From an uncultured Candidatus Saccharibacteria bacterium (lineage in GTDB: Bacteria; Patescibacteriota; Minisyncoccia; Phycocordibacterales; UBA918): 64,000 nt of DNA. The position numbers and the translations under genes were made by a program. Below are positions 6,299 through 56,534 of this stretch, piece after piece. Below the pieces are notes generated by a model. It worked only from the letters and a program-made list of their open reading frames with translations. It was not told the origin of the DNA and did no database searches. Location: the NCBI GenBank assembly GCA_964643955.1, contig CAZXUO010000002.1, positions 44,691-108,690 on the forward strand, written 5' to 3'. Positions within the stretch are counted from its first letter, which is position 1, and every line of letters begins with the position of its first letter.

Positions 6299-7756
6299 AT
6301 GGCCATTCGCCTTTCCTCATCACGCATGGATGTGGGGGATAAGACGTTCCTCAAACCTGTCTTCAAAGATTATGGAGAAGTCCTCAATGATATGGGGCCT
6401 GGTGGCGGTACGCGTGATATCGATCTGACGCTTGGTAATGTCGTGACGGCAACCGTCTCTGGATCTACGACAACATTTACCTTTTCAAATCCATCTGCGT
6501 CTGGTACTGCGTGCAGCTTCACACTTGTGCTCACCAACGGCGGCTCACAGACGGTCAATTGGCCTGCTGCTGTTGAGTGGGTTGCAGGAGAAGCGCCGAC
6601 ATTGACGACCTCCGGTGTTGATATTTTGACGTTTGCGACGACCGACGCAGGTGCAACATGGATTGGGTTTTCTGGCGGCGGCGGTATCGCACACGATAGT
6701 ACGCTCTATGCATGGGGATTGGGTGGAAGCGGACAGCTCGGACAAGGCACCTCGGCGGTAGATCGTTCTTCTCCGGTTCAAGTTGGCTCGCTTGCAACAT
6801 GGGCTGAAGTTTCAGGAGGTATGTACCATGCGCTCGCATGTCGTGTTGATGGCACACTATGGGCATGGGGATCAAATGCAAACGGACGACTCGGCGATGG
6901 CACCACTACGAGTCGCTCTTCTCCGGTGCAGATCGGCTCACTTGCCACATGGAAAAAAGTTTCCGGCGGTGGCAATCATTCGATCGCTTTGAAATCAGAC
7001 GGCACACTGTGGGCATGGGGCCTCAATTATTCAGGTCAGCTTGCACAAGGCGATCTCACACTCCGTTCTTCACCGGTGCAGATCGGCTCACTTACGACGT
7101 GGATCGATATTGCTACAAGTGCGTATCATACGATGGCACTAAAGTCTGATAGTACGCTTTGGGTATGGGGATGGGGTGGTGCGGATGGTCGTCTTGGTGA
7201 TGGTACAACTGATGCGCGTTCTTCACCGGTGCAGATCGGCTCACTCGCAAATTGGAAATCGATCGCAACATCGTGGGATCATTCACTTGCTGTAAAAACT
7301 GACGGCACGCTCTGGGCGTGGGGCGATAATGCGCATGGACGCATTGGTGACGGTACGACGACGAACCGCTCTTCACCGGTGCAAATCGGATCATCAAATA
7401 CGTGGTCCGCGGCTTCTGGTGGGTACCATCATACGGTCGCATTGAAATCAGACGGCACACTGTGGGCGTGGGGGCGAGGTTCGTACGGACGTGTGGGCGA
7501 TGGCGCCTATACAAGTCGCTCTTCACCAGTGCAGATAGGCTCACTCACGAGTTGGGTTGCGATAAGCGCGGGCATGTACAGCTCACATGCGCTCCGTGCA
7601 GACGGCACTTTTTGGTCATGGGGAGGAGGCTATGGCGGTGCACTCGGCAACAATTCAATTACTGCAGTTGGATCTCCGGTACAAATCGGATCACTCACGA
7701 GTTGGAAGAAACTTTCTACGGGTCGAAGATCTACGTTTGGAATCCGACGGGTATAG
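6299..7756 (+). CDS. RCC1-repeat (beta-propeller) protein with conserved ~130-aa N-terminal beta-rich domain
   Basis: About seven repeats of GxLGxG..(N/D)RSSPVQ(V/I)GSL..W. The N-terminal domain (GNVVTATV..FTFSNP..TL.LTNGG..VNWP) is shared with the 7829 paralogue. Confidence 0.8.
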   Translation: MAIRLSSSRMDVGDKTFLKPVFKDYGEVLNDMGPGGGTRDIDLTLGNVVTATVSGSTTTFTFSNPSASGTACSFTLVLTNGGSQTVNWPAAVEWVAGEAPTLTTSGVDILTFATTDAGATWIGFSGGGGIAHDSTLYAWGLGGSGQLGQGTSAVDRSSPVQVGSLATWAEVSGGMYHALACRVDGTLWAWGSNANGRLGDGTTTSRSSPVQIGSLATWKKVSGGGNHSIALKSDGTLWAWGLNYSGQLAQGDLTLRSSPVQIGSLTTWIDIATSAYHTMALKSDSTLWVWGWGGADGRLGDGTTDARSSPVQIGSLANWKSIATSWDHSLAVKTDGTLWAWGDNAHGRIGDGTTTNRSSPVQIGSSNTWSAASGGYHHTVALKSDGTLWAWGRGSYGRVGDGAYTSRSSPVQIGSLTSWVAISAGMYSSHALRADGTFWSWGGGYGGALGNNSITAVGSPVQIGSLTSWKKLSTGRRSTFGIRRV

Positions 7757-7828
7757 TCCACGCTCCAAATTTTTTGTCCGTGGTATCATACAATTTACAT
7801 AGAGATTTTTCTCTTGGTGTACTAGTGT

Positions 7829-9283
7829 ATGGCCATTCGTCTTTCGTCATCGCGCATGGATATGAACGACAAGCCGCTCGAGCGGCCGGTCATTCGAGAT
7901 TATGGAGAAGCAGTGAATGCACTCGGTGGAGGGAGCGGTACGCGCGACATCAATCTCTCACTCGGCAATGTTGTCACGGCGACCGTCACCGGTACTACCA
8001 CCTTTACTTTTTCAAATCCGACGCCCGCGGGCACTGCGTGTACGTTTACCCTGATGCTCACCAACGGTGGTGCTCATACCGTCAATTGGCCTACGGCAGT
8101 GAAGTGGGCAAATACAGAAAATAATGTTGCGCCGACACTTAATAGTGCGGGGGTGGATGTACTCACTTTTTTAACAACGGATGTGGGGCTGACATGGTAT
8201 GGATTTTCAGGCACTGCGGTTGAAGATAATGACACCCTCTGGGCATGGGGTTTAAATAATGAGGGAAATCTAGGTGTGGGTGATACAGCTAATCGTTCTT
8301 CACCTGTACAAGTTGGTTCGCTGTTGACACGCTCAACAGCGAAAGCTGGCCTTGTGCACGCAACAACGCTTCGCTCAGACGGCACCCTCTGGACGTGGGG
8401 GAGAAATGATGAGGGTCAGCTCGGTCAAGGGGATGTGGCGGATAGATCCTCGCCTGTACAAATCGGTTCGCTTACGACATGGTCGCAAATTGCAACAGGA
8501 CAAACGCAGACACTTGCCATCCAGTCAGATGGCACGCTCTGGGCATGGGGGCGCAATGGACTTGGTCGTCTTGGTGACGGTACGACAACGAACCGCTCTT
8601 CACCGGTACAGATTGGCTCGCTTACGACGTGGTCAAAGGTAGCGACCGGATATGTTCATTCTGCTGCAATCCAGACAGATGGCACCTTGTGGGTCTGGGG
8701 TGAGGCAACCAGATTGGCAACGGATGTTGTGGGTAATCGCTCTTCACCGGTACAGATTGGCTCGCTTACGACGTGGTCAAAGGTAGCGACCGCCGTCAAT
8801 CATACATTGGCACTCAAAACAGACGGTACGCTCTGGGCGTGGGGAGTCGGTACGGTAGGTCAGCTTGGAGAAGGAACCAGTGCTGTTAATCGCTCTTCAC
8901 CTGTACAAGTCGGTTCGCTCACCACGTGGTCAACTATTGCCGGAGGAAATAATGTCTCTTTAGCATTAAAGTCCGATAATACCCTCTGGGCATGGGGAAG
9001 TAATTCAAGCGGGCAGTTAGGGCTTGGTGATACTGCAAATCGTTCTTCACCCGTACAAGTTGGTTCGCTTACAACATGGTCAGTAATAGCTCCTGGAGAT
9101 ACCCACGTGCTCGCTATCCAGTCAGACGGCACCCTCTGGGCGTGGGGAAATGGCGCAAGCGGTGGCCTTGGTCTTGGTGATACTGCAAATCGTTCTTCGC
9201 CTGTACAAGTTGGTTCACTCACGACGTGGCGTGCAGCTTCGGTCGGCACAACTTTCTCGGTTGCAAATAAGCGAGGTGCTTAG
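7829..9283 (+). CDS. RCC1-repeat protein paralogue (with N-terminal domain)
   Basis: About 70% identical to 6299..7756 in the N-domain, with the same RCC1 repeat periodicity. Confidence 0.8.
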   Translation: MAIRLSSSRMDMNDKPLERPVIRDYGEAVNALGGGSGTRDINLSLGNVVTATVTGTTTFTFSNPTPAGTACTFTLMLTNGGAHTVNWPTAVKWANTENNVAPTLNSAGVDVLTFLTTDVGLTWYGFSGTAVEDNDTLWAWGLNNEGNLGVGDTANRSSPVQVGSLLTRSTAKAGLVHATTLRSDGTLWTWGRNDEGQLGQGDVADRSSPVQIGSLTTWSQIATGQTQTLAIQSDGTLWAWGRNGLGRLGDGTTTNRSSPVQIGSLTTWSKVATGYVHSAAIQTDGTLWVWGEATRLATDVVGNRSSPVQIGSLTTWSKVATAVNHTLALKTDGTLWAWGVGTVGQLGEGTSAVNRSSPVQVGSLTTWSTIAGGNNVSLALKSDNTLWAWGSNSSGQLGLGDTANRSSPVQVGSLTTWSVIAPGDTHVLAIQSDGTLWAWGNGASGGLGLGDTANRSSPVQVGSLTTWRAASVGTTFSVANKRGA

Positions 9284-9326
9284 TTTTCAGATTTCTGTTT
9301 TCAAAAATAGTTTATAATTCTTTTGT

Positions 9327-10418
9327 ATGCCGCGTTTTCCAAAACCACGTGTAAACGGTACCCTCTGGATGTGGGGCAATGGTGCAAATGGTCGCCTTGG
9401 TATGGGTGATACGGTAAGTCACTCATCACCGGTACAAGTTGGTTCACTCAATACGTGGACGTTTGTTGCGCTAGGCGCTGAAAGCACATTTGGAATTCAA
9501 TCCAACGGTACCCTCTGGGCATGGGGGAATAATGTAAACGGACGACTCGGTGATGGTACTACGACGAGTCGCTCGTCGCCGGTACAAGTTGGTTCACTCA
9601 ATACGTGGAAGATGGTCGCTCCGGCAGAATTTCACACACTTGGAATAAGGACCGACGGTACGCTCTGGGCATGGGGCCGGGGCACATATGGAGTGCTTGG
9701 GCAAGCTACAAATAATAATAGCCAATCATCTCCGGTACAAGTCGGCTCACTCACGACCTGGGTGAATGCTTCGGTTGGAGAACAACATTCGCACGGGATA
9801 CGTTCGAACAGTGTGCTGTTTAGTTGGGGAGAAGGGGCGAATGGACGACTTGGCGGCGGTAATCAAACAGATCGTTCATCTCCCGTTCAAGTTGGTACAG
9901 GAACAATTTGGTCTCTTGTTTCAGGTACCAATCGACATTCACATGGCCTAACACATGATGGTCGATTGTTTTTCTGGGGATACAATGCAAACGGTTACGC
10001 GACTTCTGGAAATGGTGCTTACAACCAACGCTCATCTCCGGTGCAGGTTGGCTCACTTGTGGAGTGGATGCATGTCTCAAACGGAAATGGTCATTCACAT
10101 GCGATTCGTTCAAACGGCACACTGTGGTCATGGGGTCGTTATTACAATGGTTCACAAGGAACGAGTGATAACACAACGCGCAACTCTCCCGTACAAGTCG
10201 GCTCGCTCTCAACATGGAGTGATGTTTCTGCAGGAAAAGATCATAGTATCGGGTTGCGTGTAGATGGCGCGCTGTTTGGCTGGGGGGCAGCCGGAAGCGG
10301 TCAACTTGGACAAGGAAATACCACAGAATTTAACTCTCCTGTTCAAGTCGGCTCACTCACAACGTGGGTTCAGCCAGCAGCAGGTGGATCTCATTCTGCG
10401 GCACTTCGAAGAGGCTAG
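9327..10418 (+). CDS. RCC1-repeat protein paralogue lacking the N-terminal domain
   Basis: Only RCC1 repeats (RSSPVQVGSL..W). No obvious RBS, and a TATAAT 7 nt upstream suggests a leaderless start. Confidence 0.65.
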   Translation: MPRFPKPRVNGTLWMWGNGANGRLGMGDTVSHSSPVQVGSLNTWTFVALGAESTFGIQSNGTLWAWGNNVNGRLGDGTTTSRSSPVQVGSLNTWKMVAPAEFHTLGIRTDGTLWAWGRGTYGVLGQATNNNSQSSPVQVGSLTTWVNASVGEQHSHGIRSNSVLFSWGEGANGRLGGGNQTDRSSPVQVGTGTIWSLVSGTNRHSHGLTHDGRLFFWGYNANGYATSGNGAYNQRSSPVQVGSLVEWMHVSNGNGHSHAIRSNGTLWSWGRYYNGSQGTSDNTTRNSPVQVGSLSTWSDVSAGKDHSIGLRVDGALFGWGAAGSGQLGQGNTTEFNSPVQVGSLTTWVQPAAGGSHSAALRRG

Positions 10419-10420
10419 AT

Positions 10421-11170
10421 ATGCGTTTAGATATCGTTTTACGTACGCATGATGGAGGCGATGTGCATCCTGACACAGGAAGATTTTTATCAGTGCCAAA
10501 AAAAGAAATTGTAAAGAGAAGTGTGCGATCGCTCCATGAGTCATCAAAATTAGCGGCAGGAACAGATATCACTTTTCATATCATTGATGATCATTCGTCG
10601 AGCGAGACGGTTGATTTTCTAAATACCATTATTGAAGTAGAGCCGCTTTCCGGGACGGGCAACAATGCTTCATGGCTTCGTGCATTTGAACGTGCGCGGG
10701 ATAGCGAAGCTGATGCCGTGTATCTTGTTGAAGACGATTATCTTCATGCTCCTGAAGCACTCCGCGAAATGGTCTTTTTCTATCAGGATGCGCGCGAGAA
10801 AAGCAGAGGAAGGGAGATGGTGCTCTGTCCGTATGATGATTTTTTCAACTATGTACACGGACCTGATAAAACGGGATACGTCGTACCGGGACGTGAGCGG
10901 CACTGGCGCACAAATACATATACCGCTGGGACGTTTTTTATTTCTCCGAAGATTGTGCGTGAACATTGGGAAAAATTTGAGCGGCTTGCAACGCTCTATG
11001 AGACGCCGCAGGGTAAAGCTGAAAAAGTACATGAAGAGACGACGCTTGCGCGTATCTGGATGGAAGGATATGCAACACTCTTCACACCGTTACCATCGCT
11101 TGCGGTCCATCTCAATCAAAATATCCCGCCGCTTTTTGATTGGAAGACGTTGTGGGAGAAGTATGCTTGA
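10421..11170 (+). CDS. Glycosyltransferase, GT-A fold (GT2-like), DxD motif VEDDY
   Basis: The core (HWRTNTYTAGTFF..) is homologous to the N-terminal domain of the 23727..25145 gene. The track start at 10364 is non-ATG and overlaps the upstream gene, so it is trimmed to the ATG at 10421. Confidence 0.6.
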   Translation: MRLDIVLRTHDGGDVHPDTGRFLSVPKKEIVKRSVRSLHESSKLAAGTDITFHIIDDHSSSETVDFLNTIIEVEPLSGTGNNASWLRAFERARDSEADAVYLVEDDYLHAPEALREMVFFYQDAREKSRGREMVLCPYDDFFNYVHGPDKTGYVVPGRERHWRTNTYTAGTFFISPKIVREHWEKFERLATLYETPQGKAEKVHEETTLARIWMEGYATLFTPLPSLAVHLNQNIPPLFDWKTLWEKYA

Positions 11171-11179
11171 ATAGGGCGC

Positions 11180-11860
11180 ATGAAGACGCTCGTCCTCGCG
11201 ATCGCGATCGGAGACTACTACCAGAAGATGGGAGAAATAACGCACCCACTTATGCGCGCATATGCAGAGCGCGTCAGCGCTGATTTTATGGTGATTACGG
11301 AGAAGAAAATCTCACAGACATCGGCGCATTGGGAGAAGTTTCAGATACATGACTTGCTTGATACGTATGATCGAATTCTTTTTCTCGATACGGATATTAT
11401 TGTGCGCGGCGATTGTCCAAACCTTTTTGAGGCCGTACCGGATGATGCATTTGGTGCATTTGATGAATCACGCTATTACACCGATGCGTGCGAGCGTATG
11501 GAGCTCACGGCGCGGGAGTATGAGATGGAGGTGATGGAAGCATGGGATGGTCGATATTTTAATACGGGCGTGATGGTGATCTCGCGCGCGCATCAAAAAG
11601 TATTCCAAAAGCCGCCGCGAGAATTTGATAATTTTTATGAGCAGACCTACCTCAATCTTGTGTTTGTGCGAGAAGGTGTACGTATGTTCCCGCTCGATTT
11701 TCGTTTCAATAGAATGCATCCAATGAACGCACACACCGGTGAACCGCGTCTTTCTTCATATATTGTGCATTACGCGGGATATACTGCCGAGGAGCCTGAG
11801 ATGGTGTTTGATTATATTCGGGAGGATATAGAGCGCTGGATGAAGCGGGGCGTGCTCTAG
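11180..11860 (+). CDS. Nucleotide-sugar glycosyltransferase, GT-A fold (GT8/GT32-like), DTD motif
   Basis: LFLDTDIIV DxD motif with a Rossmann-like N-terminus. Confidence 0.5.
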   Translation: MKTLVLAIAIGDYYQKMGEITHPLMRAYAERVSADFMVITEKKISQTSAHWEKFQIHDLLDTYDRILFLDTDIIVRGDCPNLFEAVPDDAFGAFDESRYYTDACERMELTAREYEMEVMEAWDGRYFNTGVMVISRAHQKVFQKPPREFDNFYEQTYLNLVFVREGVRMFPLDFRFNRMHPMNAHTGEPRLSSYIVHYAGYTAEEPEMVFDYIREDIERWMKRGVL

Positions 11861-11907
11861 GCGGGCTGGTGGTCGGGTAGAATAGAAACCGGTATAATGC
11901 TCCCGCT

Positions 11908-13836
11908 ATGCAGAAAGACCTTCTTGACCAGCAGCTCGACGCGAATCTTCATGGAAATTTTGAAGAGGGATGGCGCATTGCACAAATTCTTGAGCATGAA
12001 CGGCCCAATGATAACCGAGCGGCATTTAATCGCGGCTGGCATTATCTTTCGCGTGGTGATTTGCAAAAAGGAATGGATCTCATGGATCGGGGGCGATATG
12101 AGGGTGTCTTTGGATCGCCGCCACTTAAGACGGAGAAGCCTATTTGGGATGGAAAAGTATCACTTGTTGGGAAGACGTTGCTGCTCCGTGGAGAGGGAGG
12201 ATTTGGTGACGAGATCATTCATGCGCGTTTTGCGAAGGGTTTTGCGGAGCGCGGAGCGCGGGTGATACTTGCGTGTTCTCCTGAACTTGCGTCGCTCTTA
12301 TCGCGCGTCGAGGGTGTGTCTGAGGTGGTATCGCGCGCGGTGCCGGAACATCTTCTTTTTGATTATTGGGTTCCGGCGATGAGTGCAGCACGTATTCTTG
12401 GTTATACTTTCGAGACGCTCCCGAATGCCCCCTATATTTTTGCGAAAGAAGAAAAGGTGCGTGAACATGCGCTTGCGGGTATTCATAAAGTAGGTATCCG
12501 CTGGTCAGGGAATCCGCGCTTTGAACACGAACAGCACCGACGTTTTCCTGCGGAGCCTTTGTTTGAACTACGACACGGGAAAGATGTGACGCTCTACTCG
12601 CTTCAGCGTGATCACGATCTTCGCGATGTGCCCGAAGGTATCATTGATCTCGAAAAAAAGATGGCGACGTGGGAGGACACGGCGGGTGTGATTGCGAATC
12701 TCGATCTCGTCATCACGTCGTGCACCTCGATCGCGCATCTTGCTGCTGCGATGGGAAAAGAAACGTGGGTCATTACGCCGGTGCTCCCGTACTATATTTG
12801 GGCACAGCCGGGTGAGCGGAGTGCGTGGTATAAGACTGTGCATCTCTTCAGGCAAGAAAGGTTTGGCGATTGGGAAGCGCCGCTTGTTGCAGTTGCGCGT
12901 GCATTTGAAGCACGCTTCGGAGTTGTGTTGCCAACTGAGCGTGAACACGTCCATACTGTTTCTCCTGCTGAATCGTCGCATGGACTCGTCGGCTCATCGG
13001 AAGAAAACGTCGTGCGTCCGCGTGCGCGTGTATCGGAACAGAAAAAGACGATTCATTTTGTATCAGGACTCCCGCGCTCTGGTTCGACGATGTTGATCTC
13101 TCTTCTTTCTCAAAATCCGCGCATACATGGTGCACCGATTTCAGGACTTGCAGGTATTTTTACCGGCATTTACGCAAATTGGGATAAAAATGAATTTCAT
13201 GTTGAGAGCCCCAATGAGACAGCAAAGCGTGCGGTGCTCGCTTCAGTACTCGACGCATATTATGCGCATATTGATAAGCTGATCATCCTTGATAAGGATC
13301 GGTCGTGGGTGTCGCGGATTGCGCTTCTTGAGGATATTTTAGAGCGCGAGGTGAAGATTATTTTACCGGTGCGACCGATCATCGAGATCCTTGCATCATT
13401 TGAGACATTGCGACTCAAGAACCCAACTGATCTTACGGGTGCAGATGAGGCGCTCGGACCGACTTCGACGATTCCGGGACGCGCTGAATATTTTATGAGT
13501 CCGAGCGGAACAATTGGTTTACCTTTCCATTCGATGAAAGATGCGGTGACGACGGGATACCTCGATCGACTTTTGTTTGTTGATTACAACAAACTCATGT
13601 CTGCGCCAAAAGCACAGCTCAAACGCATCTACGAGTTTCTTGAAGAGCCGTCATTTGAACACGATTTTCAAAATATCACTCGGCCTGGTGAGAGTAATCC
13701 AAAAATACATAAATTTCCTGGGCTTCATGACGTACGGCCGAAGTTTGAACGTATCTCCCGCAATCCGCGCTCGCTGCTTGGTGATGATGTGATCGATCGC
13801 TATGGGCAGCCGGATCCGTGGGCGCAGTGGACGTAA
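11908..13836 (+). CDS. Fusion protein: N-terminal GT9 (heptosyltransferase-family) glycosyltransferase domain plus C-terminal sulfotransferase (Sulfotransfer_3-like) domain
   Basis: GT9 signatures LLLRGEGGFGDEIIH and ITSCTSIAHLAAAMGKETWVITPV. Sulfotransferase 5'-PSB-like GLPRSGSTML plus a downstream VRPIIEILAS motif. Confidence 0.6.
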   Translation: MQKDLLDQQLDANLHGNFEEGWRIAQILEHERPNDNRAAFNRGWHYLSRGDLQKGMDLMDRGRYEGVFGSPPLKTEKPIWDGKVSLVGKTLLLRGEGGFGDEIIHARFAKGFAERGARVILACSPELASLLSRVEGVSEVVSRAVPEHLLFDYWVPAMSAARILGYTFETLPNAPYIFAKEEKVREHALAGIHKVGIRWSGNPRFEHEQHRRFPAEPLFELRHGKDVTLYSLQRDHDLRDVPEGIIDLEKKMATWEDTAGVIANLDLVITSCTSIAHLAAAMGKETWVITPVLPYYIWAQPGERSAWYKTVHLFRQERFGDWEAPLVAVARAFEARFGVVLPTEREHVHTVSPAESSHGLVGSSEENVVRPRARVSEQKKTIHFVSGLPRSGSTMLISLLSQNPRIHGAPISGLAGIFTGIYANWDKNEFHVESPNETAKRAVLASVLDAYYAHIDKLIILDKDRSWVSRIALLEDILEREVKIILPVRPIIEILASFETLRLKNPTDLTGADEALGPTSTIPGRAEYFMSPSGTIGLPFHSMKDAVTTGYLDRLLFVDYNKLMSAPKAQLKRIYEFLEEPSFEHDFQNITRPGESNPKIHKFPGLHDVRPKFERISRNPRSLLGDDVIDRYGQPDPWAQWT

Positions 13837-13845
13837 GTTCGTCCC

Positions 13846-13880
13846 CACGCCGCGACGCCAAAGGTGTTGCGGCGTTTTGC
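13846..13880 (+). terminator. Possible intrinsic terminator after the GT9-sulfotransferase gene
   Basis: cgccgc..gcggcg stem followed by TTTT. Confidence 0.35.
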
Positions 13881-13901
13881 TACCTGCTATAATTCCTCCA
13901 T

Positions 13902-15029
13902 ATGACGCTTGCGCGGCGAGTAATGATGGTGCTGAGAGAGGCGGCTGCGGTGCTCGATCCTGCACTTTGGTCGTGGGGGATGGGTAGCGTAGGTTCTTTG
14001 GGCGATGGTTCTACCACCAATCGTTCCTCTCCCGTCCAGGTTGGGACGTTGTCTGATTGGGTTATTCTTTCTTCAGGTGGAAGGAATTCATCAGAGGGAT
14101 GGAATCAGGCAATAAAATCAAACGGCACCCTCTGGGCATGGGGTGCCGGCCCTTTGGGTAATCTTGGGTTGGGTGACACGAATAATCGTTCCTCTCCCGT
14201 CCAGGTTGGTTCACTCACAACATGGAAGAGCGTTTCTGCGGGGGCTGCCCACTCATTTGGTATTCAAAGTAACGGCACCCTCTGGGCATGGGGCCTAAAT
14301 TCTACCGGCCAATTAGGTCAAATAAGTAACAATACTAATAGATCCTCTCCTGTTCAGATTGGTTCTTTAACAACATGGACTGCAGTTGCTGCAGGTGCGG
14401 CACACGGAGTTGCACTCCAATCAAATGGCACTCTTTGGACGTGGGGTCGTAATAATGAAGGTGAGCTTGGGCAAATTAGTAATACGACCAATCGTTCCTC
14501 TCCTGTCCAAGTTGGTTCACTTACTACATGGACTGCAGTTGCGGCTGCGTACACTCATTGCTTAGCTCTCCAATCAAATGGCACTCTTTGGACGTGGGGT
14601 GACAATAGGAACGGTCGTCTTGCGGACGGCTCTACCACCAATCGTTCCTCTCCCGTCCAAGTTGGTTCACTAACAACATGGTCAGGACTTGGACTAGGGA
14701 GCTCTCTCTATCATTCCGTTGCTCTCCAATCAAATGGCACTCTTTGGACGTGGGGGACGGGGTCTTCTGGTCGTCTCGGTGACGGCGCAGCCTCCAACCG
14801 CTCCTCTCCCGTCCAAGTTGGTAGTCTAACAAGTTGGGTTATGGCTTCGGGAGGTGTGCAAATGAGTGCTGTCAGGGCAGATGGGACTATTTGGACGTGG
14901 GGTCCAAACGGAACGGGGGCTTTAGGCGATGGCTCAACCATCGACCGCTCCTCTCCCGTCCAAGTTGGTAGTCTGACTAGCTGGACAAATACTTCCACGA
15001 GCGGTACCCACACACTCGGACTACGGTAG
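13902..15029 (+). CDS. RCC1-repeat protein paralogue (no N-terminal domain)
   Basis: Eight RSSPVQVGSLT.W repeats. Upstream TGCTATAAT extended -10. Confidence 0.75.
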   Translation: MTLARRVMMVLREAAAVLDPALWSWGMGSVGSLGDGSTTNRSSPVQVGTLSDWVILSSGGRNSSEGWNQAIKSNGTLWAWGAGPLGNLGLGDTNNRSSPVQVGSLTTWKSVSAGAAHSFGIQSNGTLWAWGLNSTGQLGQISNNTNRSSPVQIGSLTTWTAVAAGAAHGVALQSNGTLWTWGRNNEGELGQISNTTNRSSPVQVGSLTTWTAVAAAYTHCLALQSNGTLWTWGDNRNGRLADGSTTNRSSPVQVGSLTTWSGLGLGSSLYHSVALQSNGTLWTWGTGSSGRLGDGAASNRSSPVQVGSLTSWVMASGGVQMSAVRADGTIWTWGPNGTGALGDGSTIDRSSPVQVGSLTSWTNTSTSGTHTLGLR

Positions 15030-21911: not shown

Positions 21912-21988
21912 GCAATTGAATGACACATTGCTTGTGCGCTCCGGGCCGCTAGGCCAAGTCTTACACAAGCTCTATCTCATTCAATTGC
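21912..21988. promoter_or_regulatory. Extended imperfect palindrome in a divergent promoter region (candidate operator)
   Basis: gcaattgaatga-cac-attgcttgtg ... cacaagc-tctatc-tcattcaattgc. The outer 12-bp and inner 7-bp arms are both mirrored. Confidence 0.4.
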
Positions 21989-26600: not shown

Positions 26601-26653
26601 GGGGCGGGCTGCCCGTTGCGGAAAAATACTTTTCTGGTATAGTGCTCTGACAT

Positions 26654-26923
26654 ATGAAGGCAGACATTCACCCAAACAACTACCGACCGGTCATTTTTCA
26701 TGACAACTCAAGCGGGAAGCGATTCCTTATCGGCTCTACTGTTGCCACAACTGAGACGGCAAAGTGGGAAGATGGCGAAGAGTACCCAGTGACGTACGTG
26801 GAAGTCTCAAGCGCGTCACATCCGTTCTATACCGGAAACGAGAAGGTGATGGACACAGCAGGTCGCGTGGAGAAATTCAAAATGCGCGCCGAAGCTGCAG
26901 CTGCAAAGCGCAAGAAGAAATAG
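26654..26923 (+). CDS. rpmE: Ribosomal protein L31
   Basis: MKADIHP start with a basic lysine-rich C-terminal tail. No CxxC pair is evident, suggesting a non-zinc-ribbon form. Confidence 0.8.
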
Positions 26924-26930
26924 TTCGCTC

Positions 26931-27088
26931 GGTCTCCCCAATCACGAGACGAGTGCTCCAACCTCAAGAAAACATCGTCGTCTCCACGACGAAAAAACGA
27001 AACTCGACTGCGTCTCAAACAGTCGTTTTTTCTGTTTTGACTCCCTGTTTTCTAAAATGTTTCCGCAAGTCTCGTGATTGGGGAGACC
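26931..27088. mobile_element. MITE-like element: 158 bp with perfect 20-bp terminal inverted repeats flanked by a 6-bp direct repeat (TCGCTC)
   Basis: ggtctccccaatcacgagac (26931-26950) pairs with gtctcgtgattggggagacc (27069-27088). TCGCTC lies immediately outside both ends. The interior contains two further hairpins. No ORF is present. Confidence 0.5.
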
Positions 27089-27127
27089 TCGCTCAGCGTG
27101 GGGGCTTATGGCATACTGGCGTGGTAT

Positions 27128-28123
27128 ATGGCAATGGATCAGAAAACTGACTACGATATCGACACGTTCCGCAAAGATCAGCGGACGCAGTTTTTGGCGA
27201 GCCACTATGATTCCCTCGAGGCTCGCTCGGCGGAGCTCACGGAGCTGCTTGCCGATCCTGCGATGAAAGAAATGGCCGAGGAGGAGGCGGCTGAACTCAC
27301 GCGCCAGAAGGAAGAGCTCTTTGCGGAGATGGCGCGCATCCTCGAGGCAGGGCGTGAAGAGGAGGAGCGACCGTATGGCGTGGTGCTTGAGGTGCGCGCG
27401 GGAGCGGGAGGTGAGGAGGCTGCGCTTTTTGCAGAGGAGCTCGCACAGATGTATTGCACCTATGCGCTTGCGCAGCGATGGAGCGTGAGTACTGCGTCTG
27501 AGTCGCGCGCGAGCCAAGGCGGCTACAAAGAAGCGACCTTTGAAATCATCGGTCCGGGCGCGTACGACGCGCTTCGCTATGAGACAGGAGTGCATCGTGT
27601 ACAGCGTATTCCGGTGACCGAAAAGGCGGGGCGTATTCATACGTCGACTGCATCGGTTGCGATCCTGCCGATGCGCAAGCGACCGACGATTGATATCAAT
27701 CCATCAGACATTGAAATGGAGTTTACGCGCTCAGGTGGCGCTGGTGGACAAAACGTCAACAAAGTAGAGACCGCGGTGCGGCTCGTCCACAAGCCGACTG
27801 GAGTTGAGGCTCGCTCGCAGTCCGAGCGCTCTCAGCAGAAGAATCGCGAGAAAGCCATGAGTATCTTGATCGCAAAGCTTGAGTCGGCACATGAGGAAGA
27901 AGAGCGTGCAAAGCATGCCGAGACGCGTCGCAACCAGATCGGTACCGGCGACCGCTCGGAGAAGATTCGTACCTACAATTTCCCCCAGAGCCGCATCACT
28001 GACCACCGTATTAAGGAGTCATGGCATAACCTCGAGGAGGTGCTCGCGGGCGGCCTCGATGGGGTAGTGGAGTCCCTTACGGCGGCCGCCCGCGGTGAGG
28101 TTGCGGAAACCGACCCTGTGTGA
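27128..28123 (+). CDS. prfA: Peptide chain release factor 1
   Basis: GGQ motif ([11 protein letters not shown]) and an RF1-type PVT tripeptide at the PxT position. The start is uncertain (ATG 27128 or 27134); the track GTG at 27074 lies inside the MITE terminal repeat. Confidence 0.85.
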
Positions 28124-30056: not shown

Positions 30057-30237
30057 GTTGAAGTGTAGCGTGCCATCTTAGCTCAGTTGGTGGAGACAGA
30101 TGCGAAGCATTTGTCACATGTGATGCTATAAGGTAAGAATGTAGTTGAAGTGTAGCGTGCCATCTTAGCTCAGTTGGTGGAGGTGAATGAGTAGCATTCT
30201 CCGCTTATAATGCTCTGAGGTCAGTTGTTGAAAGTGT
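30057..30237 (+). repeat. Two tandem ~88-nt repeats, each carrying the leader plus the 5' half (acceptor and D arm) of tRNA-Thr but no anticodon or T arm (tRNA pseudo-copies)
   Basis: gttgaagtgtagcgtgccatcttagctcagttggtggag occurs at 30057 and 30145. The intact tRNA follows at 30238. No T-loop or 3' acceptor is present in copies 1 and 2. Confidence 0.6.
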
Positions 30238-30310
30238 GCCATCTTAGCTCAGTTGGTAGAGCAACGCACTTGTAATGCGTAGGTCGTCGGTTCGAATCCG
30301 ACAGATGGCT
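30238..30310 (+). tRNA. tRNA-Thr (anticodon TGT)
   Basis: Hand-folded cloverleaf: acceptor GCCATCT/AGATGGC, D arm GCTC-AGTTGGTA-GAGC, anticodon arm ACGCA-CTTGTAA-TGCGT, T arm GTCGG-TTCGAAT-CCGAC. Confidence 0.85.
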
Positions 30311-49632: not shown

Positions 49633-49675
49633 AACGGTATCACAGGCCGCCGAAAACAGGAATGGAATCCCCTCA

Positions 49676-49870
49676 AAGAACCTTTCATGCTTTTAGCGAC
49701 CAGTCGTCGCCCCTGCGGGCTCCGCCTTGCGGTTTCGGCATGGACTTTGCTTTGCAAAGGCCATGCTCCATGCCTGCAAATGCTCTCTAAAAGCATGAAA
49801 GGTTCTTTGGTTCTTAATAATGTTGCTCTGCGTGGCTGTAGATGCTCGCAGAAGCTACATGCCGGTTTTC
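49676..49870. repeat. Structured palindromic element copy A (full, 49676-49808, with a perfect 22-bp outer inverted repeat) plus an adjacent truncated 3' fragment of a second copy (49821-49870)
   Basis: The outer arms aaagaacctttcatgcttttag and ctaaaagcatgaaaggttcttt enclose a core shared with copies B and C: a GCCCC-ygc-GGGC hairpin, cttGcggTTtCGg, a bulged hairpin and TGCAaATGCTC. Confidence 0.6.
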
Positions 49871-53153: not shown

Positions 53154-53292
53154 GAAAAACCACCACATGTTTGGGGACCGTATCATGTTCCAGCGAACAT
53201 GATACTTCGGCTTCGGCTCGCACTTTTGTTCAAGAAACAAAAGACCGTGCTGCGAGCCTGCAGATGCTCCCCAAACATGCAGTGGTTTTTCC
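53154..53292. repeat. Structured palindromic element copy B, occupying almost the whole dnaE/rnhB divergent intergenic region
   Basis: Outer arms aaaaaccaccacatgtttgggga and tccccaaacatgcagtggttttt. The core has a gtatcatgttcc-agc-gaacatgatac hairpin, CTTCGGCTTCG, a bulged hairpin and CTGCAGATGCTC. Confidence 0.6.
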
Positions 53293-55695: not shown

Positions 55696-56397
55696 ATGAC
55701 AGATACTGCAACCTTTAAGAGACTCGAGCAATTGCTCGGAGTCTCGTTTTCAGATACGACCTACCTGCTCTCGGCTATTACGCACCGTTCATTTCTTAAT
55801 GAAAATAGGGATGCCGTGCAGGAGCACAATGAGCGCCTCGAGTTCCTCGGAGACGCGGTACTTGAGCTTGTGGTGACGGACTATCTTTTTAAGGAGTTTC
55901 CAAAGAAAGCAGAAGGCGAGCTCACGGCTATTCGTGCGGCGCTCGTAAACACCAACACACTCGCTGAGACGGCGACGACGCTCGGCATCAACGAGTATCT
56001 CTTGCTTTCAAAAGGCGAGTCGAAGGATGTGGGGCGCGCGCGGCAGTATATTCTTGCAAATGCGTTTGAGGCTATCGTCGGTGCTATTTATCTCGATCAG
56101 GGGTACGATGCCGCGCGCGATTTCATCGCATCGCAGCTTTTCAACAAGACCGAGCGCATCGTCGAGAAGCGCCTCTGGCAAGATGCAAAGAGTCGTTTTC
56201 AGGAGCGCGCGCAGGAGATGGTTGGCATTACGCCCGCATATCAGACTTTGAAGGAAGTGGGTCCTGACCATGATCGTATGTTTACGGTTGGTGTATTTCT
56301 CGGAGAGGAATGCGTTGCGCAAGGCGATGGTCGTGCGAAGCAGGAAGCTGAACAAAAAGCAGCGGAGAATGGGTTGGCGGCGAAGGGGTGGGGGTAG
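55696..56397 (+). CDS. rnc: Ribonuclease III
   Basis: HRSFLNE..NERLEFLGDAVLELVVTDYLF RNase III signature with a C-terminal dsRBD. Confidence 0.9.
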   Translation: MTDTATFKRLEQLLGVSFSDTTYLLSAITHRSFLNENRDAVQEHNERLEFLGDAVLELVVTDYLFKEFPKKAEGELTAIRAALVNTNTLAETATTLGINEYLLLSKGESKDVGRARQYILANAFEAIVGAIYLDQGYDAARDFIASQLFNKTERIVEKRLWQDAKSRFQERAQEMVGITPAYQTLKEVGPDHDRMFTVGVFLGEECVAQGDGRAKQEAEQKAAENGLAAKGWG

Positions 56398-56402
56398 GGG
56401 AC

Positions 56403-56534
56403 GGAAAGTCAGTGCACTATGCGACCGCGTGCGCCCCAGCGGGCGCTCGCTTCGGCTTCGCCGCACACTTTTTTATTACATAAAAAAGACCATGCTGTGC
56501 GGCTGCAGATGCTCGCATAGTGCACAAACTTTCC
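56403..56534. repeat. Structured palindromic element copy C, between rnc and smc
   Basis: Outer arms ggaaagtcagtgcactatgcga and tcgcatagtgcacaaactttcc. The core has a gcgcccc-agc-ggggcgc hairpin, CTTCGGCTTCG, a bulged hairpin and CTGCAGATGCTC. Confidence 0.6.

Follow-up and report, generated by a model that had tools for sequence, protein, structure and literature searches.

What is a transposon-shaped sequence doing between two translation genes of a very small genome? The question is raised by a 158-bp element that lies between rpmE (ribosomal protein L31) and prfA (peptide chain release factor 1) in an uncultured Candidatus Saccharibacteria bacterium. The element was studied within a 64,000-nt stretch of contig CAZXUO010000002.1 (assembly GCA_964643955.1), hereafter the window, whose coordinates are used throughout; the 64-kb window plus ~2.6 kb more is the source-genome sequence that was searched. 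A preliminary description, made from the sequence alone, had read the element as a miniature inverted-repeat transposable element (MITE) with a target-site duplication. Comparison with the orthologous loci of related organisms supports an element that is single-copy in the searched data, vertically inherited and under selection.

Conserved center and co-varying arms

The two ends of the element are exact reverse complements of each other (20/20 nt) at a spacing of 118 nt, and the hexamer TCGCTC is found immediately outside both of them, just as the preliminary description had reported. Each arm is also internally palindromic, a feature absent from that description: two 5-bp half-sites surround a variable 9-nt core (GTCTC-N9-GAGAC). 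The relaxed pattern GTCTC-N7-11-GAGAC occurs only twice in the whole window, i.e., at the two arms, and these are also the only two window sites of the arm 20-mer when up to 3 mismatches are allowed (100 shuffles gave 0). Inverted 16-mer seeds at 20-600 nt spacing number 13 in the window versus a mean of 0.1 in dinucleotide shuffles, an excess of more than 100-fold, and by simple arithmetic a flanking direct hexamer would arise with an a priori probability of 1/4096. The inverted repeat is not credibly explained by chance. The whole element folds at -72.4 kcal/mol (z = -9).

The rpmE-prfA spacers of relatives were retrieved by exact-protein look-ups for L31 and PrfA variants in many samples (loci and contigs outside the window carry L numbers), and divergence at the 4-fold degenerate sites of rpmE and prfA was used as a neutral yardstick. 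Position and orientation of the element are shared by four lineages: the window type (L001, L005), L004, the L072 type (at least 8 samples, including L006, a contig of a metagenome-assembled genome [MAG] in GTDB) and L085. By the yardstick, the window differs by 0.15 from L002, 0.26 from L004 and 0.51 from the L072 type, and the range across element-bearing lineages is 0.26-0.53. The interior has one orientation in all 13 distinct contigs that carry it (11 samples, four lineages). Three pairings of lineages give 2/91, 1/91 and 3/91 differences in its central block, 26964-27054 (binomial P of 1e-9 to 6e-27 at the 4-fold rate), and at the interior edges, 13-14 nt on each side, divergence rises up to near-neutral (up to 6/14). 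Judged by the 4-fold sites, the central block is under purifying selection.

The arms have evolved in another manner. Their cores are CCCAATCAC on the left and GTGATTGGG on the right in the window type, and TCAATCCGT and ACGGATTGA in L004, with 20/20 complementarity between the arms in both cases. The L072 type combines TCAATCCGT with ACGGACTGG (18/20), and L085 combines TCAATCCGT with ACGGGCTGA and an outer GAGGTC (16/20); a third left core, CCTTATCAC, is seen in L078, whose contig breaks off right after the left arm. The window and L004 differ at 6/9 core positions, and all six differences are compensated on the opposite arm. In the four-sequence alignment, 97.5% of the arm cells form standard pairs (+ strand) and six pairs are changed on both sides; 0/500 shuffles matched the observed arm pairing or covariation, and pairing is only 33-45% when the arm registers are slid by 1-3 columns. 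Measured against 4-fold sites, the cores have diverged faster in the comparison of the window with L004 (6/9, P = 0.012), yet L004 and L072 have the same left core (0/9, P = 0.0012), and the left arm as a whole is invariant across L004, L072 and L085. Arm cores evidently fall into discrete matched classes and are not clock-like. Of five independent right-arm substitutions in L072/L085, four give G.U pairs on the + strand.

The flanking hexamers vary as well. The left one is TCGCTC in L004 and L078 and CCGCCC in L072/L085, the right one is TCGCTT in L004, L072 and L085 and TCGCTC in L002, and the match between the two sides is thus 6/6 in the window, 5/6 in L004 and 3/6 in L072. Because the center is almost unchanged and the arms stay complementary over the whole range of neutral divergence, a neutral relic is excluded; nor is the element decaying, since its center is nearly invariant and its arms co-evolve.

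Table 1. Features of the rpmE-prfA region and of the A/B/C elements in the window
Feature	Coordinates	Strand	Remarks
rpmE (ribosomal protein L31, 89 aa)	26654-26923	+	Open reading frame; Pfam Ribosomal_L31 on identical product
Left flanking direct repeat, TCGCTC	26925-26930		Abuts left arm
Left arm, GGTCTCCCCAATCACGAGAC	26931-26950	+	GGTCTC-CCCAATCAC-GAGAC; within rpmE 3' untranslated region
Central block, nearly invariant	26964-27054	+	91 nt; 1-3 changes between lineages
Interior hairpin 1	26976-26991	+	CGTCGT-CTCC-ACGACG; A-run after
Interior hairpin 2 plus TTTTTTCTGTTTT	27005-27038	+	CGACTG-9 nt-CAGTCG (27005-27025); likely, rather weak rpmE intrinsic terminator
Right arm, GTCTCGTGATTGGGGAGACC	27069-27088	+	GTCTC-GTGATTGGG-GAGACC; between terminator and prfA promoter-like block
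Right flanking direct repeat, TCGCTC	27089-27094		Abuts right arm
prfA promoter-like block and probable start ATG 27128	27109-27130	+	TGGCATACT, extended -10 type; outside element
prfA (peptide chain release factor 1)	27128-28123	+	Pfam PCRF and RF-1; homologs
Element A	49674-49809		~135 nt, intergenic
Partial A/B/C motif	49837-49862
Element B	53154-53291		~135 nt, intergenic
Element C	56403-56534		~135 nt, intergenic; directly after RNase III gene

Probable terminator and prfA start, and the alternative spacer allele

The element begins 8 nt past the rpmE stop codon (TAG at 26921-26923, followed by one T and then TCGCTC). Both hairpins that had been described in its interior are present (Table 1). 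Hairpin 2, with a stem of 6 bp and a loop of 9 nt, is located with TTTTTTCTGTTTT 82 nt past the rpmE stop, and together with its U-run it is likely to be the rpmE terminator, predicted to be rather weak. An A-tract upstream of hairpin 2 gives it the look of a terminator on the - strand as well; a terminator consensus scan missed it on the + strand, where the loop exceeds 8 nt, and called - strand versions. Besides the terminator, the interior evidently holds further conserved sequence, ~90 nt in all being under strong purifying selection by the same yardstick.

Several other roles for the interior and the arms were considered and rejected. Only two open reading frames (ORFs) run through the interior, of 63 aa (- strand) and 128 aa (+ strand); they are not conserved, and a 1-nt deletion in L004 shifts the frame of both, in agreement with the preliminary description, which had found no ORF there. 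A promoter inside the element is not supported: TTGACT and TAAAAT are just 10 nt apart, TAAAAT is not kept in L072, and a consensus scan found none. Rfam at the gathering threshold gave nothing in the window save one tRNA, and nothing at E-value thresholds for the element; the best local score, 15 bits for NrrF against a cut-off of 60, is a terminator-like match. The arms are not a split terminator hairpin, since they have no A/T tracts, no U-run follows, and no "empty frame" palindrome occurs in any relative. GTCTC is the BsmAI/BsaI core, and the idea of a restriction site was dropped as well, for the window shows no avoidance of GTCTC (66 and 88 sites versus ~61 expected). At 26924-26956, the left TCGCTC and arm can fold locally in the terminated rpmE 3' untranslated region (UTR), as CGCUCG.GUCUC and GAGAC.CGAGUG with the 9-nt core as the loop; as a functional hairpin of the terminated 3' UTR this structure was discarded, its outer part not being kept by the L072 substitutions.

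The preliminary description had pointed out that the listed prfA start, GTG 27074, falls inside the right arm and had placed the true start downstream, which is borne out by related genes. PrfA gene calls in five related contigs begin at the ATG equivalent to 27134; in L085 and L088 this codon is ACG, and the gene call shifts to the ATG equivalent to 27128. Because the second ATG (27134) is ACG in these two, we take ATG 27128 as the most likely prfA start. The block TGGCATACT (27109-27117), which contains CATACT 10 nt upstream of ATG 27128, is invariant in all haplotypes and is also found 9-10 nt before the ATG in relatives of ~75% identity that are without the element (L077, L090, L091). Since this promoter-like block is downstream of the element and conserved without it, the element does not supply the prfA promoter, contrary to one possibility raised in the preliminary description. 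The motif ATACT-N4-TGGTATA is common to rpmE and prfA and stands right before both start codons (26626-26656 and 27109-27136). The arrangement suggests that both genes may have promoters of the extended -10 type and mRNAs that are leaderless or nearly so.

An alternative form of the spacer was found in L002/L003 (L002:3271-3334), with a more diverged version in L079/L080; it is an allele of window 26922-27064. Here a 65-nt stretch has taken the place of all the sequence between the stop codon and a point 4 nt short of the right arm; it holds a canonical GC-rich terminator (GAAATGCGAGCCC-TTAC-GGGCTCGCATTTC) and a T-run. The left repeat, the left arm and the interior are missing, and the right arm and its TCGCTC are kept, identical to those of the window. 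On this structure, the allele does not represent a filled-versus-empty polymorphism. Because a canonical terminator stands where the left arm and interior were, termination appears to be the function that needed replacement. The L31 protein variant P0125 occurs with either allele in sister samples, and contig ends fall inside the element in several cases (L078, L084, L089), which suggests that element-bearing and alternative alleles coexist.

Mobility, gene context and related spacers

Neither the arm 20-mer at up to 3 mismatches nor BLAST of the whole element gave a second copy in the 64-kb window. The exact arm 20-mer has 0 matches in the GTDB genomes (one genome for each of 185,579 species). 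The generic end pattern with free cores, GGTCTC-N9-GAGAC-N100-130-GTCTC-N9-GAGACC, has 66 loci there, and the only one from the Candidate Phyla Radiation (CPR) is the orthologous locus L006 in the related MAG, which therefore has no second copy bearing such ends. The other 65 loci (L007-L071) are an unrelated Acidobacteriaceae repeat, Spirulina direct repeats and one Clostridia MAG. In Acidobacteriaceae genomes, the repeat is an abundant palindrome (GGGTGCCCCG GGTCTC GCGnTTTTC GAGAC ...) with inverted pairs 100-130 nt apart; in Spirulina sp. CCNP1310, direct-repeat arrays contain GGTCTCCACTCGCTGGAGACC; both are unrelated to the element. The generic pattern has 0 matches in a viral collection, and an interior 21-mer has 0 matches in a collection of metagenome contigs that evidently lacks this lineage.

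Among the 40 large ORFs of the window, a Pfam scan found no transposase, integrase, invertase or recombinase, and no RAYT gene was matched. No precise empty site was found among relatives, whose distant spacers cannot be aligned, and the alternative allele keeps the right arm and TCGCTC. The preliminary description had itself named the lack of other copies and of an empty site as what would speak against its reading; since neither was found in the sequences searched, the claim of a mobile MITE fails. Its anatomical part stands, and a transposon-like origin survives, insertion being plausible in view of the parallel in L091 described below. The literature on MITEs, invertons or structured RNAs of CPR bacteria yielded nothing bearing on the element.

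The element has housekeeping surroundings. Local gene order is L25, a methyltransferase-like gene (- strand), a gene for an SLT-domain protein, rpmE, the element, prfA, rpsB and tsf. By PrfA and the adjacent genes, the window belongs to a Kaiserbacteria-like member of the CPR; the best named homolog of PrfA is from Candidatus Kaiserbacteria (75% identity). The same 40 large ORFs include tatC, gap, transketolase, pheST, gyrB, thrS, dnaE, rnhB, rnc, smc, RNase R and trmD, with the RNase III gene (rnc) at 55696-56397. Other repeats in the window are a tandem repeat of 2.5 units of 87 nt at 30057-30261, which extends into the window's single tRNA gene (30238-30310) and whose unit includes the tRNA-like 5' sequence GCCATCTTAGCTCAGTTGGTGGAGAC, and an inverted repeat at 21912-21988, whose 25-nt arms are 84% complementary and separated by 27 nt, in the spacer between two divergent genes, one for a pfkB-family kinase (- strand) and one for a 2-hydroxyacid dehydrogenase. 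At 6299-15029, four paralogous RCC1-repeat proteins (485, 484, 363 and 375 aa) are encoded among glycosyltransferase and sulfotransferase genes, with a 153-nt internal tandem repeat at 14343-14822.

Relatives with 54-75% PrfA identity show several forms of the rpmE-prfA spacer. It is 7 nt long without a terminator in L093 and L098, a plain terminator in L090, L097 and L100, and a terminator followed by a ~100-150-nt element with inverted repeats in L104/L109, L110, L118, L138, L146 and L167. The arms of these latter elements are locus-specific, 16-21 nt long, and have no flanking duplication. Two close relatives, L110 (977-1183) and L099 (1111-1153), have the repeat-bounded segment in opposite orientations. 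Their flanks align in the same direction with 85-93% identity, whereas a 43-nt stretch of the segment aligns with the other strand at 95% identity and the ends of the segment correspond as reverse complements; the arms differ between the two yet stay complementary. DNA inversion between such arms must therefore have occurred at least once in this class. In L104 (and L109), the inverted repeat is located ~260 to 130 nt upstream of prfA. Its left arm, 21 nt long, is formed by the last codons and the stop of rpmE (CCTCAAGGCGAAGAAATAGGC) and for this reason is not possible as the end of a transposon; the inverted copy of this arm follows 89 nt farther on, past the terminator.

The most informative relative is L091 (PrfA 74% identical), where positions 1285-1455 read TCGCTC, a 158-nt inverted-repeat element, G and TCGCTC. 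The arm ends resemble those of the window (CCCATCAGAGAC versus CCCAATCACGAGAC), and both right arms open with GTCTC and contain TTGG. Homology of the interiors was rejected: they are unrelated in alignment (z = 0.07), and that of L091 is weakly like the A/B/C family described next (14.6 bits). Identical hexamers at equivalent positions in L091 and the window cannot, to judge from the spacers themselves, be a coincidence. They would reflect either an old frame of hexamer and arms with exchange of cargo or the independent entry of related elements at one site. The hexamer is compatible with the target-site duplication that had been proposed, and it is odd for one in being kept in the distant L091 and decayed in the nearer L072; the decay in the much closer L072 (CCGCCC / TCGCTT) also argues against simple constraint.

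A second group of elements, A, B and C (Table 1), is found in other spacers of the window, and a fourth member is located in the rpmE-prfA spacer of L077 (L077:151-286). Their outer arms, 22-29 nt, are locus-specific, and the interior is common to the members: GACC, TTCGGCTTCG, an A/T hairpin and GACCRTGCTG...CTGCAGATGCTC. Changes on both sides preserve 33 of the 53 predicted pairs. Rfam has no match to the family, and a covariance model built from the four members (R1) finds these four copies only. The members score 121-148 bits with R1, and the rpmE-prfA element 8.4-10.1 bits, from the outer stem only; with no likeness in sequence or inner structure, it was rejected as a member. What the two have in common is a locus-specific outer stem of 20-29 nt enclosing two inner hairpins and a position between the end of a gene and the next promoter. 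In the L072-type organism, the element C ortholog (L173:2247-2381, L174:1189-1323) retains only TGCTGTGCGGCTGCAGATGCTCGCA and has new complementary arms, CTGAAAAACA... and ...TGTTTTTTCAG. Because even this remodeled ortholog has matched arms, labile but matched arms are a general property of these elements. Finally, a relative with 85% identity in rnc has a 79-nt unit repeated 3.6 times in tandem in the rnhB-rpmF spacer (L177:6297-6581); within each unit the conserved blocks ATTGCACCCTC and GGGGTACCTAAGATT alternate with variable hairpins, and the array has no Rfam match.

Competing explanations and known systems

Our favored explanation, which we hold tentatively and short of calling it probable, is that the element is a domesticated foldback module that carries the rpmE terminator and whose long-range stem, in read-through RNA, is a target of the RNase III type. 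The left arm would always be transcribed as part of the rpmE 3' UTR, and read-through of the weak interior terminator would add the right arm to the transcript. The arms could then pair as a perfect 20-bp duplex, or as two GUCUC/GAGAC hairpins with kissing 9-nt loops. A duplex of 20 bp is about the minimum RNase III substrate, and the organism encodes the enzyme (see above). Read-through RNA would be removed by being cut or sequestered, so that a leaderless prfA unit stays independent of rpmE; the Correia elements of Neisseria, treated below, are the precedent. For this element we infer transcription, read-through, RNase III action and an origin by insertion. An RNA-level reading is weakly favored by the G.U-compatible right-arm changes (4/5) and by the left arm being invariant in L004, L072 and L085.

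Several observations weigh against it. The strand is undecided, as 98.1% of cells pair on the + strand versus 97.5% on the - strand, and hairpin 1 in L072 favors the - strand. All six double changes are on one branch, so they may be one replacement and not six compensations. Selection on pairing should be weak, because the right arm would be transcribed by read-through only, and the right arm is intact in the allele that has no left arm. A plain RNA duplex leaves unexplained the palindrome within each arm (GTCTC...GAGAC) and the class-like changes of the cores, as well as the TCGCTC repeats common to L091 and the window.

The palindrome and the matched variable cores are what would be predicted if the arms were lox/FRT-like sites of site-specific recombination and the 118-bp interior an invertible segment, with the recombinase encoded elsewhere. 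Recombination would keep both cores identical, and cores could differ between lineages as long as they are matched. The discrete, non-clock-like core classes fit this scheme, as do the inverted segment of L110 and L099 with its differing yet complementary arms and the contig of L078 that stops at the inner edge of the left arm. We nevertheless regard inversion at this locus, the foremost rival of our explanation, as unlikely, though worth serious consideration: a single orientation is seen in all 13 interior-bearing contigs, no recombinase is among the 40 large ORFs, the 5-bp half-sites are far shorter than known tyrosine recombinase sites, and the 2-3 core mismatches in L072/L085 would block strand exchange, yet the interior is conserved. 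Moreover, the interior is terminator-like in both orientations, so that no switch phenotype is evident, and the direct repeats are not explained. A broader version, to which we give a lower and distinctly modest chance, would make the arms minimal core-specific recombination sites of a wider, undescribed class of invertible intergenic elements in Kaiserbacteria-like CPR bacteria. Locus-specific arms would then stop copies from recombining with one another, and the A/B/C family, the L110/L099 inversion and the cargo swap of L091 would be facets of one system. The hexamers are given a role if the element is a small integrative or site-specific mobile cassette, in which TCGCTC is the crossover sequence or an obligatory target and the arms are end sites. 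Its circular junction would read arm-TCGCTC-arm, and different cargoes would have entered the site behind rpmE in each lineage. Tyrosine-recombinase overlap regions are 6-8 bp, a range that includes a 6-bp repeat. L091 is the natural example, with TCGCTC on both sides, like ends (CCCA(A)TCA(C)GAGAC and GTCTC...TTGG), a length of 158 nt and an unrelated interior, and other relatives of ~75% identity (L090, L077) lack this arrangement. This is nonetheless improbable in our view, as the outer arm parts beside TCGCTC differ (GTACC in L091 versus GGTCTC in the window), the chromosomal flanks have no arm-like half-sites, neither a recombinase in the window nor a precise empty site was found, and near-neutral interior edges around an invariant center fit old vertical descent and not recent entry.

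An ordinary MITE, relic or rarely active, would have been mobilized once by a DDE transposase encoded elsewhere, with a 6-bp target-site duplication, and would be functionless. The terminal inverted repeats with a 6-bp direct repeat, the small size and the intergenic position are those of a MITE, and the right arm that stands alone in L002/L003 is like the fragments that deletions are described to leave of Correia repeats. We consider it quite improbable, since the element is single-copy wherever it could be searched for, the window has no transposase, and a neutral relic would not keep 91 nt nearly unchanged or arms 16-20/20 complementary. The arms may also be viewed as two operators for a dimeric DNA-binding protein recognizing GTCTC-N9-GAGAC; with 138 bp, or ~13 helical turns, between their centers, the DNA ahead of the prfA promoter could form a loop. 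Palindromic half-sites that are conserved while the spacer between them varies would be expected of operators, and the right arm is kept without the left one, ~50 bp upstream of the probable prfA start. The chance of this is very slim, for it leaves unexplained the exact reverse-complementarity of the variable spacers in each lineage; the window has no other GTCTC-N7-11-GAGAC site, and L085 has lost one half-site (GAGGT).

If the favored explanation is true, a transposon-shaped element has become a fixed, selected boundary of two essential translation genes in a very small genome, in which any 160 bp of non-coding DNA needs explaining. Two things are of interest here: arms that co-evolve, and spacer elements with inverted-repeat ends that recur, and are in part invertible, in a CPR group. 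The arms are a natural test case for selection on nucleic-acid pairing versus homogenization by recombination. Spacers in this uncultured group repeatedly hold elements bounded by inverted repeats, with locus-specific arms and conserved interiors, including at least one multi-copy family with strong internal covariation that is absent from Rfam. These elements offer a lead on the organization of transcript ends in CPR bacteria, which are mostly uncultured; nothing fundamental is changed by them.

Among known systems, the Correia elements of Neisseria have 26-bp inverted repeats and a length of ~105 or 155 bp. When the repeats are symmetric, the hairpin that they form is an RNase III substrate, and deletions leave single repeats behind (PMC2649163). 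Correia repeat enclosed elements (CREE) occur in >100 copies per genome, with a TA duplication, and are co-transcribed with neighboring genes (PMC2649163). The element is like CREE/NEMIS in its ~155-bp size, intergenic position, inverted repeats of 20-26 bp and flanking duplication, and presumably in co-transcription. CREE differ in their >100 copies, TA duplication, conserved repeats, promoter-forming ends and IHF site, whereas the element is single-copy, with a 6-bp repeat, lineage-variable co-evolving arms and no common sequence; RNase III cleavage is suggested by analogy only. Bacterial MITEs resemble it in their terminal inverted repeats, flanking direct repeat, length of <300 bp, lack of coding capacity and intergenic location. 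In contrast to MITEs, the element has no copy family, empty site or parent insertion sequence in the searched data, its interior is more conserved than the surrounding genes, and its terminal repeats co-vary and are neither conserved nor decaying.

Invertons and lox/FRT systems likewise have two sites in inverted orientation, in which inverted half-sites flank an asymmetric core; the core is identical in the two partners and may differ between lineages. In the element, the cores of the two arms are identical in the window and L004 and have 2-3 mismatches in L072/L085. The element differs from these systems in its 5-bp half-sites, 9-bp core, single orientation, lack of a recombinase in the window and additional direct repeats. 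REPINs consist of inverted short palindromic units and a spacer, and keep a long hairpin through compensatory changes; unlike the element, they have tens to hundreds of copies and a cognate RAYT gene, neither of which is seen in the window. Thus, the element matches none of the described families compared, and it is best filed as a domesticated foldback/MITE-like intergenic element.

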